Virus record (IMG/VR): IMGVR_UViG_3300035698_019747
Coordinates: 64,001 to 128,000 of that record
Length of the DNA: 64,000 nucleotides
Direction: 5' to 3' (one strand)
DNA from: a virus
Part shown: positions 40,630 to 51,552 of the stretch, piece after piece
Numbering within the stretch: position 1 is the first letter of the stretch
Layout of the letters: each line of letters starts with the position of its first letter
The notes under the pieces: model-generated
Database searches by the model: none
Told to the model about the DNA's origin: nothing
The model's input: the letters and a program-made list of their open reading frames with translations, nothing else
Made by a program: the position numbers and the translations under genes

Positions 40630-40698
40630 ATGAGAAAAATGATTTTAAATACTACATTATTAAGCATCAGCATTATTTTATTATTAATGGTGTATTGA
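40630..40698 (+). CDS. Leu/Ile attenuator leader peptide MRKMILNTTLLSISIILLLMVY
   Basis: 6 Leu codons, all TTA; 4 Ile codons, all ATT/ATC; directly upstream of tRNA-Leu(UAA) and tRNA-Ile(GAU). Confidence 0.85.
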   Translation: MRKMILNTTLLSISIILLLMVY

Positions 40699-40762: not shown

Positions 40763-40848
40763 GGTTGAGTGGTGGAATTGGTAGACACGAGGGGTTTAAA
40801 ACCCCTTGGTCAGAAATGATCGTGCGGGTTCGAGTCCCGCCTCGACTA
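40763..40848 (+). tRNA. tRNA-Leu(UAA)
   Basis: GTGGAATTGGTAGACAC D-arm, AGGGG-TTTAAAA-CCCCT anticodon arm, long V-arm, GGTTCGAGTCC. Confidence 0.95.
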
Positions 40849-40866
40849 CTAAAAATCACATATTTT

Positions 40867-40940
40867 AGTCTAGTAGCTCAGTTGGTTAGAGCGTTTCCCT
40901 GATAAGGAAAAGGTCGCAGGTTCAAGTCCTACCTAGACTA
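40867..40940 (+). tRNA. tRNA-Ile(GAU)
   Basis: AGCTCAGTTGGTTAGAGC, TTTCC-CTGATAA-GGAAA, GGTTCAAGTCC. Confidence 0.95.
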
Positions 40941-43003: not shown

Positions 43004-43081
43004 GGTGGGAGATTAGGCTATGTGGTAAGTAGCACAAGCCTTCTAAAAGCTTGGACAGGGGTTCGACTCCCCCTCTCACCA
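43004..43081 (+). tRNA. Atypical tRNA-like RNA; anticodon CUA (amber) or UCU in an expanded loop
   Basis: GGTGGGAG/CTCTCACC acceptor, GCTA/TAGC D-stem, CAAGC-CTTCTAAAA-GCTTG anticodon arm, GGGG-TTCGACT-CCCC T-arm. Confidence 0.7.
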
Positions 43082-48398: not shown

Positions 48399-48406
48399 TA
48401 TATTTG
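48399..48406 (+). promoter_or_regulatory. Bacteroidota sigma-70 -7 element TATATTTG (representative copy)
   Basis: Also upstream of genes at 2610(-), 7193(-), 13368, 14227(-), 35459, 39879, 41711, 42379, 46238, 51788(-), 58734. Confidence 0.8.
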
Positions 48407-48409
48407 TAT

Positions 48410-48615
48410 AAAATAGCCAGAGGTTGTATCGCTCCACGGAGAGGAAATTCAGGACAACATTGCTCACGGAAGGAGGGTTAGACAAAAGCCCGTTTGCACT
48501 TCCCAGGTTGCAACACGAACAGACTTAGTAGGTGAGCAATACTTTTATAGTCGGGTTAGTGGCAAATAGGTAAATGATACATTAAAACAGGATTCTGATT
48601 ACGCTCAGCTATTTT
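48410..48615 (+). ncRNA. rnpB: Minimal RNase P RNA (type A catalytic core, S-domain nearly absent)
   Basis: CR-I GAGGAAATTCAGGA (48441-54) and CR-V ACAGGATTCTGATTA (48587-601) form P4 with bulged U and compensatory changes; P1, P2, P5+CAA, P6, P7, P15-P17, L15 GGU and CR-IV TAGGTAAATG all identified; TATATTTG promoter at 48399. Confidence 0.9.
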
Positions 48616-48654
48616 TTATTTTTAAACAAAAAAATTAAATACTAATATATACAT

Positions 48655-49203
48655 ATGAACAATAAAACAATCGCCATTTTTGATTTTGATCAAACACTTT
48701 ACATGTGTCCACTCCCAACACCTGAGAATCGAGAGAAGCTATCTAAAGCTATAGATTATACAAGAAGTGGGTGGTGGGGCAGAGGTGAAAGCCTTAACTT
48801 AGATGTATTTGATATACTTCCCAACCCACACATTAAGAGTCAGTATGATATACATTCTGAAATTGGTAATAAACGATTTATGCTAACTGGTAGAATCTTT
48901 CGACTTAAAGAAGCTGTTAGAAATGTGTTTAGAAAAGATGGTTTTAGTTTCGATGGGGAATATTATGCAGATGGTAGAAGAACTATAGATTATAAATTAG
49001 CTATTATTGATGAATTAGTTGAAACACACAATCCATCAACTATATATTTCTATGATGATAGAGAAGAACATATTCAAGAATTTCGTACTAAAGGGGACGA
49101 GTTAAAGGATACTAAAGGAATTGACTTTTACCAGTACCAAGTTTTTATTGATGGTTCTGGTATTATTGAAGTTCCATATGGACAGAAAGGGGTGGTCGAA
49201 TAG
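48655..49203 (+). CDS. HAD phosphatase (PNKP / Swiss-army-knife RNA-repair-like)
   Basis: FDFDQTL, MLTGR, YK, FYDDREEH. Confidence 0.8.
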   Translation: MNNKTIAIFDFDQTLYMCPLPTPENREKLSKAIDYTRSGWWGRGESLNLDVFDILPNPHIKSQYDIHSEIGNKRFMLTGRIFRLKEAVRNVFRKDGFSFDGEYYADGRRTIDYKLAIIDELVETHNPSTIYFYDDREEHIQEFRTKGDELKDTKGIDFYQYQVFIDGSGIIEVPYGQKGVVE

Positions 49204-51139: not shown

Positions 51140-51211
51140 CACGCATGGTGAGACTCGAACTCACATCAACGGTTTTGGAGACCGTTATCCTACCAATTGG
51201 ACGACACACAT
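51140..51211 (-). tRNA. tRNA-Trp(CCA)
   Basis: ACGGT-CTCCAAA-ACCGT, GTTCGAGTC; GU-rich acceptor stem. Confidence 0.9.
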
Positions 51212-51219
51212 ATTTCTTG

Positions 51220-51313
51220 TCTAGAGAACGGGATTTGAACCCGTGGAGCATACTATCTGTGTACACTCAGCCGTTTCCAAGACGACTTGCTTAAACCACT
51301 CGCACATCTCTAG
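51220..51313 (-). tRNA. tRNA with UGG anticodon (Pro) on a long-variable-arm body
   Basis: CTAGAGA/TCTCTAG-A, GAGTGGTTTAA D-loop, GTCGT-CTTGGAA-ACGGC, 8-bp V-arm GAGTGTAC/GTATGCTC, GGTTCAAATCC. Confidence 0.85.
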
Positions 51314-51317
51314 TTTG

Positions 51318-51390
51318 TCGGGAAGGTAGGAATCGAACCTACTAACTGATGCTTCCAATGCACCCGTGCTTAAACCTTAGTCACTTCCCG
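51318..51390 (-). tRNA. tRNA-Pro(UGG), A37, irregular D-arm
   Basis: CGGGAAG/CTTCCCG-A, GGTGC-ATTGGAA-GCATC, GGTTCGATTCC. Confidence 0.85.
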
Positions 51391-51398
51391 ATATTTTG

Positions 51399-51472
51399 TA
51401 TAGTAGGTGGGATTCGAACCCACGTGCTCCACATCCCAAATGTGGCGAGATAAACCTCTCCTCTACTACTAT
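51399..51472 (-). tRNA. tRNA-Pro(UGG), G37 but A1-U72
   Basis: ATAGTAG/CTACTAT-A, CCACA-TTTGGGA-TGTGG, GGTTCGAATCC. Confidence 0.88.
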
Positions 51473-51481
51473 ATGTATTTG

Positions 51482-51552
51482 TTGGGCTAACAGGACTCGA
51501 ACCTATAATCACTCCTTCAAAGGGAGCTGTTATGCCATTTAACTATAGCCCA
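51482..51552 (-). tRNA. tRNA-Gln(UUG)
   Basis: TGGGCTA/TAGCCCA, GCTCC-CTTTGAA-GGAGT, GGTTCGAGTCC. Confidence 0.93.

Follow-up and report, generated by a model that had tools for sequence, protein, structure and literature searches.

A minimal phage RNase P RNA gene derived from bacterial type A and its homologs in other phages

The RNA gene and its parts

RNase P RNA is a ribozyme that shortens newly made tRNAs at their 5' end, and its S-domain is the half that reads the tRNA shape; to our knowledge, only one other ribozyme is universal in cells. The DNA analyzed here (the window) is a 64,000-nucleotide stretch of IMG/VR UViG 3300035698_019747, a 152-kb virus record that is 56% complete, and coordinates refer to the window unless another record is named. 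A 206-nt RNA gene, present as a single copy on the contig, lies on its plus strand. No ORF of 50 aa was found inside 48410-48615, the GC content of the gene is 43% versus 23-32% in the flanks and 28% in the genome, and the element is identical letter for letter in contigs from two salt-lake DNA runs. The gene and its parts, with the two strands of a helix separated by a slash, are listed below.

48399-48406, plus strand: putative -7 promoter octamer of the Bacteroidota type (TAnnTTTG), predicted start at about 48410-13
48410-48615, plus strand: minimal RNase P RNA gene, 206 nt; 154.2 bits with model R1 (E 2e-41, model positions 1-205)
48410-48441, plus strand: P1 5' strand (48410-22), P2 5' strand (48425-31) and P3 hairpin (48432-41)
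48410-17/48608-15, with three further pairs 48420-22/48604-06, plus strand: P1
48425-31/48575-81, plus strand: P2, 7 bp
48432-34/48439-41, plus strand: P3, a tiny hairpin
48442-48458, plus strand: J3/4, P4 5' strand (CR-I) and P5 5' strand, matching E. coli rnpB
48446-54/48593-600, plus strand: P4, seven Watson-Crick pairs and one G-U, with bulged U48449 equivalent to E. coli U69
48455-58/48507-10, plus strand: P5
48460-67/48532-39, plus strand: P6 pseudoknot, 8 bp (4 bp in E. coli)
48468-48503, plus strand: remnant S-domain, made of P7, a conserved internal loop and a variable hairpin
48468-72/48499-503, plus strand: P7, covarying
48473-74/48492-98, plus strand: stub internal loop, with U-N-R-N-A at 48494-98
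48475-91, plus strand: stub hairpin, stem 48475-79/48487-91
48507-48521, plus strand: P5 3' strand, J5/15 CAA (48511-13), P15 5' strand and 5' side of L15; A48512 is equivalent to E. coli A248
48514-16/48559-61, plus strand: P15
48522-48563, plus strand: P16, P17, L17 (with the P6 3' strand, 48532-39), L15 GGU and P15 3' strand; P15-P17 covary
48522-25/48549-52, plus strand: P16
48527-30/48540-43, plus strand: P17
48554-56, plus strand: L15 GGU, kept in homologs
48567-48581, plus strand: CR-IV (J15/2, 48567-76) and P2 3' strand; no variation at the AG and AU positions across 44 homologs
48587-48615, plus strand: CR-V (48587-601), P4 3' strand and P1 3' strand; G48591 in place of E. coli A351
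48612-48623, plus strand: U-rich tract 3' of P1, a possible 3' end signal

An earlier note, made by hand-folding the same DNA, had proposed most of these elements, and every helix that it named is present in the sequence and is covered by the 154-bit match to the independent model R1. For P1, the outer pairs that it listed hold, and the three further pairs had been left out. None of the 62 proposed pairs is non-standard in the phage copy. By comparison with E. coli rnpB, three P4 pairs are changed on both sides and one has become G-U, in agreement with the compensatory P4 changes that had been put forward. The phage copy also carries A351G and U68-A358 (E. coli numbering); the former is common to 3 of 44 homologs and LR756501, and the exact U68-A358 variant was not encountered in the metagenome scan. 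P18 and P19 are absent, as the earlier note had it, and so are CR-II and CR-III; P15 is joined to CR-IV by a 4-nt linker without P18, where some homologs carry an insert.

The -7 box ends 3 nt ahead of P1. The octamer occurs in 24 intergenic copies in the phage genome versus 4.3 +/- 2.0 after shuffling and also stands upstream of two tRNA operons of the contig, which favors the proposal of a host-type promoter for the RNA gene at 48399; no -33 box is visible in the sequence upstream. The U-rich tract at 48612-48623 was not scored as a terminator in a terminator pattern scan.

The contig carries baseplate, gp32-like and tail-sheath-like genes and is viral, not cellular. Its gp32 has its best relatives in 635-735-kb megaphages, and its amidase matches phages of Alistipes, Prevotella, Flavobacterium and Cellulophaga. 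A Shine-Dalgarno-like word precedes only 2 of 155 genes. Together with the enrichment of the -7 octamer, the amidase relatives and the scarcity of Shine-Dalgarno words indicate that the host of this salt-lake phage is likely a member of the Bacteroidota.

Membership in the RNase P RNA family

A search with the Rfam RNase P models, which the earlier note had suggested as a check, gave no match for the phage copy with any of them, RF00010 (gathering threshold 100 bits) included, at gathering or E-value thresholds. Single-sequence folding was unremarkable (MFE z-score -0.66 versus shuffles). The nested part of the proposed fold, pseudoknots not counted, amounts to -30.6 kcal/mol versus an MFE of -46, so that folding probably needs Mg2+ or protein. 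Since both the Rfam and the MFE checks are negative for the phage copy, the claim rests on comparative evidence.

A covariance model, R1, was built from 44 homologs with the phage copy left out. On the 64-kb window it gave one match, exactly the 206-nt element, the next best hit reaching 14.2 bits; out-of-sample family members score 78-194 bits. R1 also detects E. coli rnpB weakly (27 bits, E 6e-6) and the rnpB of Bergeyella, a member of the Bacteroidota, at 49 bits. In the other direction the homologs match RF00010 at 35-83 bits, under the gathering threshold, the GC-richer ones at 61-83 bits with E down to 4e-25. As R1 finds rnpB and the homologs match RF00010, the phage RNA is linked to canonical RNase P both ways. 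Its resemblance to the phage family far exceeds that to host-type rnpB, and a recent acquisition from the host is disfavored for this reason.

The structural features of the RNase P clan CL00002 are present: a P4 pseudoknot helix with a bulged U between CR-I and CR-V, the core helices P1, P2, P3, P5/P7 and P15, and CR-IV. Among type A features, the RNA has the P6 pseudoknot with P16/P17, the L15 GGU, A248 and a 7-bp P2; it lacks the P8-P12 S-domain, the CR-II/CR-III T-loops, P18 and a threshold score with RF00010. No CR-II/CR-III motifs were found in the 26-nt stub, whereas the E. coli and Arachidicoccus controls have them. Judged by comparison of sequences, the element at 48410-48615 is a minimal phage RNase P RNA gene derived from bacterial type A.

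Covariation and conservation

Homologs were collected with search patterns that join CR-I and CR-V with a short gap between them; the letters within these patterns are invariant by construction and were excluded from the conservation counts. When the 17,766 column pairs of an alignment made from sequence alone are ranked by covariation score, the first 19 are all proposed pairs, which fall in P1, P2, P4, P5, P7, P15, P16 and P17, and the top scores exceed the maximum of a tree-based null. The covariation across related phages for which the earlier note had called is thus found. Of the cells, 85.5% are paired versus 35-45% in slid registers, with P2 at 95.5% (two-sided change in 6 of its 7 pairs), P4 at 99.2% and P5 at 99.4%. 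Distal P1 is misaligned in alignment A1 owing to a gap in the phage copy, and its support comes from per-sequence duplexes and the registers of alignment A3. For P6, column-wise covariation is below significance (E 0.2-6 for five pairs); five of its pairs are two-sided at 92% paired, and across 19 sequence types the duplex energy is -6.5 kcal/mol for cognate versus -2.7 kcal/mol for non-cognate strands.

In a second, independent set of 28 sequences, the four P4 positions that the search had left free pair in 111 of 112 cells, and all 28 sequences retain the GGU and the adenosines of J5/15. The equivalents of C247, A248 and A249, which lie outside the search pattern, occur in 42, 41 and 44 of the 44 homologs, respectively. 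The catalytic domain is intact and under purifying selection.

These results bear on two alternatives. A chance fold, an assembly artefact or cellular DNA would be compatible with the MFE z-score and the missing Rfam match, and is extremely improbable in view of the R1 E-value, the covariation, the recovery of the identical element from two DNA runs and the viral genes of the contig. A functional family of which the phage copy itself is decaying could be seen in the deviations at the G68 and A351 equivalents, the imperfect P1 and, again, the Rfam miss. This is very unlikely, since every deviation is compensated or common to other homologs, all proposed pairs are standard, the promoter is intact and 154 bits is typical of out-of-sample members.

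The stub that replaces the S-domain

According to the earlier note, the S-domain is reduced to one short hairpin. The reduction stands; the conserved part, however, is an internal loop on P7, and the hairpin itself is variable. The stretch enclosed by P7, 26 nt in the phage copy, ranges from 16 to 63 nt across 45 members; the hairpin may have as few as 2 or as many as about 25 bp and shows no conservation of its loop. The 5' side of the internal loop reads AG in 43 of 45 members and in all 28 of the second set; a G-C closing pair is conserved, and the 3' strand ends in an invariant A. On this 3' side, U-N-R-N-A occurs in 26 of 35 members not of the planctomycete type and, out of sample, in 17 of the 28 in the second set; shuffled controls give 1.5-1.7 and never more than 7. 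The 3-nt linker between P7 and P5 is conserved and mostly GAG. An assignment of the stub hairpin as a P9 with a GNRA loop docking on P1 is unsupported, such loops being present in at most 13 of 45 members, the phage copy not among them.

The archaeal type T RNA has been modelled with an extended P7 from the side of which a single T-loop bulges (PMC13462272). By analogy, the phage stub appears to show the type T geometry and is possibly a one-T-loop module. In U-N-R-N-A the purine is at position 3, whereas the usual T-loop has it at position 4. A contact of the stub with the tRNA elbow may be given a chance of only about one in three, because the purine is one place off and members of 156 nt do without P7.

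Distribution of the family

The pattern search yielded 63 viral loci, 27 more with a different P4, and 22 metagenomic loci. Three matches, L002 (the first exact 18-mer match), L017 and probably L022, are due to chance and are not homologs. tRNA genes were present in the fetched DNA of 65 of the 77 distinct viral members, and in 47 of the 77 a tRNA gene on the same strand lies within 100 nt. Two cultured phages, A3Wally and DLP6, carry unannotated homologs, as do three published megaphage genomes; the paper on these three carrier genomes makes no mention of RNase P (PMC7162821). In A3Wally, a Microbacterium phage (MZ150783), the RNA lies at about 93850-94070, flanked by two tRNA-Pro genes. A blastn search of GenBank phages with the element gave a match to the A/T-rich promoter stretch only, and a plasmid search with a homolog gave none.

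Members are also found in bacterial assemblies, as extras, in Gemmataceae and in Achromobacter anxifer. In the A. anxifer isolate (NZ_CAHLAR010000005.1) the mini RNA sits inside a 32-tRNA array, and a full-length rnpB is also present. That the mini RNA substitutes for rnpB in Gemmataceae was rejected, full-length rnpB being found in 51 of 61 genomes and the mini form only sporadically. About two thirds of the 66 pattern matches on genome contigs are chance matches with an unpaired P4, and several others are gapped or collapsed assemblies of canonical rnpB.

Further forms of reduction were encountered. Ultra-short members of about 156 nt in marine phages (L059-L065) have neither P7 nor stub. 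A viral contig (L020:678-886, minus strand) carries a CPR-like reduced form that retains CR-II/CR-III, and other phage RNAs, reduced independently, keep P8/P9-like or CR-II/III parts (L009:10594-10800, L026:484-674 and L039:354-589). The independence of these last three reductions suggests several captures by phages. In Microcystis phage MaAM05 (MW495066.1, L156:1148-1549), an RNase P-like RNA of about 400 nt occupies an intergenic gap; at that length it was rejected as a mini form, and it could be cellular DNA in the assembly.

tRNA genes, CCA-type enzyme and protein partner

The genes near the RNA that bear on its role are the following.

40763-40940, plus strand: tRNA-Leu/tRNA-Ile operon, no encoded CCA; candidate substrates
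48655-49203, plus strand: HAD gene of RNA-repair type downstream of the RNA (PF10307, E 5e-7; PHROG polynucleotide kinase, E 3e-5), with its own TAATATATA motif upstream
51140-51552, minus strand: nearest tRNA operon (Gln, three Pro, Trp), no encoded CCA; candidate substrates

CCA is encoded in none of the 13 tRNA genes of the contig, and the RNA gene lies 2.5 kb from the nearest of them, on the opposite strand. A class II tRNA nucleotidyltransferase (PF01743, 105 bits) is encoded outside the window (G000:C1:33508-34632, L161:1405-2529) and, by eye, has no poly(A) polymerase signature; the loop after its second motif looks short, and it may add only CC. Neither this CCA-type enzyme nor the lack of CCA in the tRNA genes is mentioned in the earlier note. 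Atypical tRNAs had been suggested as substrates. This is unsupported: all 12 tRNAs that ARAGORN detects on the contig have the D-loop GG and T-loop TTCRA of a normal elbow, and the same features are present in more than 92% of 577 tRNAs beside homologs.

Both tRNA operons of the window are preceded by tiny ORFs (40630-40698, plus strand; 51742-51659, minus strand) whose codons match the downstream tRNAs, with six TTA Leu codons plus Ile in the former and a Gln/Trp/Pro run in the latter. They are candidate leader-peptide attenuators. A TATATTTG box stands ahead of the ORF at 51742-51659 and of an Arg/Ser operon outside the window. Taken together, the tRNA genes, the CCA-type enzyme, the RNA-repair-type neighbor and the leader ORFs depict a phage that has invested in supplying and finishing tRNA.

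The absence of rnpA from the window, noted earlier, extends to the whole 56%-complete contig (PF00825), on which no HARP/PIN_5 was found either. RnpA is encoded by 1 of 53 other carriers (1 of 54 counting the phage contig) and by none of nine near-complete IMG/VR records. As rnpA is missing from the contig and rare among carriers, the mini RNA likely depends on host RnpA as a rule. The one carrier with its own RnpA is the 635-kb megaphage LR745206 (RnpA at LR745206.1:76444-76752, PF00825, 49 bits; mini RNA at 502059-502279), and the family can therefore travel with the bacterial-type protein.

Proposed function

The RNA is probably an accessory RNase P that uses host RnpA to mature pre-tRNAs. 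In favor are its homology to canonical RNase P RNA, the selection on its structure, the retained docking residues, the tRNA genes close to many viral homologs and the RnpA of one carrier. The gene would be transcribed by the host RNA polymerase from the -7 box, the ends of the transcript being set by P1 and the U-tract, and the RNA would fold with P4 and the lengthened P6 pseudoknot. Host RnpA would bind the face formed by P2-P3-P4 and J15/2. The pre-tRNA would get its CCA first, which the phage nucleotidyltransferase can supply, and would dock through CCA-GGU pairing in L15 and a contact of N-1 at A48512, after which the P4 metal center would remove the 5' leader. The P7 stub would act as a stripped-down positioning module, possibly with one T-loop-like turn touching the tRNA elbow. 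As a guess, the purpose would be extra or host-independent 5'-maturation capacity when the tRNA or RNase P RNA of the host runs short or is broken down. The C-domain of E. coli RNase P RNA cleaves on its own, about 120-fold slower, and needs P6, not P18 (PMC5839562); in line with these requirements, P6 is doubled and P18 is gone in the phage RNA.

Several observations count against an active RNase P, namely the Rfam miss, A351G, U68-A358, the gap in energy between the nested part of the proposed fold and the MFE, a nearest tRNA on the other strand 2.5 kb off, and the inactivity of the viral look-alike from camelpox virus described below. Furthermore, a benefit is not evident, given that the host is equipped with RNase P and that the phage tRNAs have an ordinary appearance.

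The ribozyme could be active with main targets other than ordinary pre-tRNAs, such as polycistronic or leader RNAs of the phage, tmRNA, or host RNAs with hairpin-CCA ends. The loss of CR-II/CR-III, the homologs without even P7, the position of the phage gene outside any tRNA operon and the cleavage of model hairpins by C-domain-only RNAs (PMC5839562) would fit such targets. The linkage to tRNA arrays is, however, strong across the family, the L15 GGU and A248 are retained, and the conserved stub suggests that a tRNA contact has been kept too, so that we consider this unlikely.

The RnpA footprint in the T. maritima holoenzyme does not include P15-P17, the GGU, A248 or P6. These elements are nevertheless conserved and covary in the phage family, which weighs against a role without catalysis, as a decoy for host RnpA or as an anti-RNase P effector, in altering host tRNA maturation. 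A mere protein decoy is also disfavored because the substrate-docking residues (A248 in 41 of 44, GGU), for which it would have no need, are kept; moreover, a phage whose pre-tRNAs have no CCA depends on RNase P activity, and one carrier brings its own RnpA. Most carriers, on the other side, have no rnpA and would compete for the host protein, and there is a precedent in the RNase P-like RNA of camelpox virus, a viral look-alike that proved inactive (PMC3001073). The decoy appears slightly less probable still than the other-target ribozyme.

The preferred reading, a pre-tRNA-processing accessory RNase P, may be extended to the family. Tentatively, and with somewhat more doubt than belief, large phages of several bacterial phyla would encode an active half-size RNase P of a new structural type that combines host RnpA, a single-loop elbow reader (none in the 156-nt forms) and a CCA-type enzyme into a tRNA-maturation line of their own during host RNA depletion. 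It would be a viral multiple-turnover ribozyme.

Comparison with known RNase P RNAs

With the E. coli M1 RNA (rnpB; type A, 377 nt, RF00010), the phage RNA shares P1-P7 and P15-P17, the 7-bp P2, the bulged U of P4, CR-I, CR-IV, CR-V, C247-A248-A249, the L15 GGU and the P6 pseudoknot. It differs from type A in its length of 206 nt, in having no P8-P14 as such, CR-II/CR-III or P18, in a P6 of 8 bp instead of 4, in the 3-nt P7-P5 linker, and in U-A at 68-358 and G at 351. Type A is essential and chromosomal, whereas the phage RNA is accessory and viral.

A length of about 200 nt and a catalytic domain with P6, P16 and P17, without P18 or interleaved T-loops, are shared with the archaeal type T. 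In type T, however, P2 is 3 bp (PMC3579882), and the phage RNA also differs from its 61-78% GC, archaeal proteins and role as the sole RNase P of the cell. The phage copy has no match to the Rfam RNaseP-T model, and the host signs are those of Bacteroidota, not archaeal. On these sequence grounds, the likeness is convergent and the phage RNA is no member of type T.

The reduced RNAs of Patescibacteria (CPR), which lack P12 (PMC8172020), are also short, about 210-220 nt, and missed at normal thresholds (L089, L111/L137 and L117), but they are cellular and keep CR-II and CR-III, both lost in the phage family. The engineered E. coli C-domain ribozyme (Eco CP RPR; PMC5839562) is likewise a catalytic domain without S-domain that needs P6 and not P18; it is artificial, whereas the phage RNA is natural, evolved and equipped with a conserved stub. 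The camelpox virus candidate (PMC3001073) comes from a eukaryotic virus, bears a loose structural likeness and is inactive in vitro, in contrast to the full conserved regions and strong covariation of the phage family. It was the only viral candidate in the full-text literature searched (subscription journals being outside the search), where neither a phage RNase P RNA nor any functional viral one was found.

This natural family, which lacks interleaved T-loops and has protein partners of bacterial type, offers a direct test of how large an S-domain RNase P requires, and it bears on the shape of the ancestral minimal ribozyme. With it, 5' maturation joins the tRNA toolkit of large phages. A whole family of RNase P RNAs is overlooked by annotation at Rfam thresholds, and compact ribozymes are on offer for guide-directed RNA cleavage. 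Because two cultured phages carry the mini RNA, the question of activity is testable now.

Other observations

Of 180 genes, 39 have the TAATATATA motif no more than 70 nt upstream. The motif has 51 intergenic copies versus 6 in shuffled sequence, with one copy at 48639-48655; it is likely a late promoter or a translation signal of the phage. One of the three Pro(UGG) genes of the minus-strand operon (51219-51313) encodes a 95-nt tRNA body with a long variable arm, which the Rfam gathering score misses. A recoding of TAG in the phage genome is not indicated, as TAG continues to serve as the stop codon of 22 of 200 long ORFs; an amber-suppressor tRNA (anticodon CUA, 43007-43080, plus strand) is nevertheless encoded. 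In planctomycete genomes, second weak RF00010 matches (G008:C1:4869928-4870109 and G004:C117:60008-61042) lie beside or apart from the main rnpB. In a 416-kb phage, a tmRNA gene is overlapped by a group I intron match (L013:426-1037).
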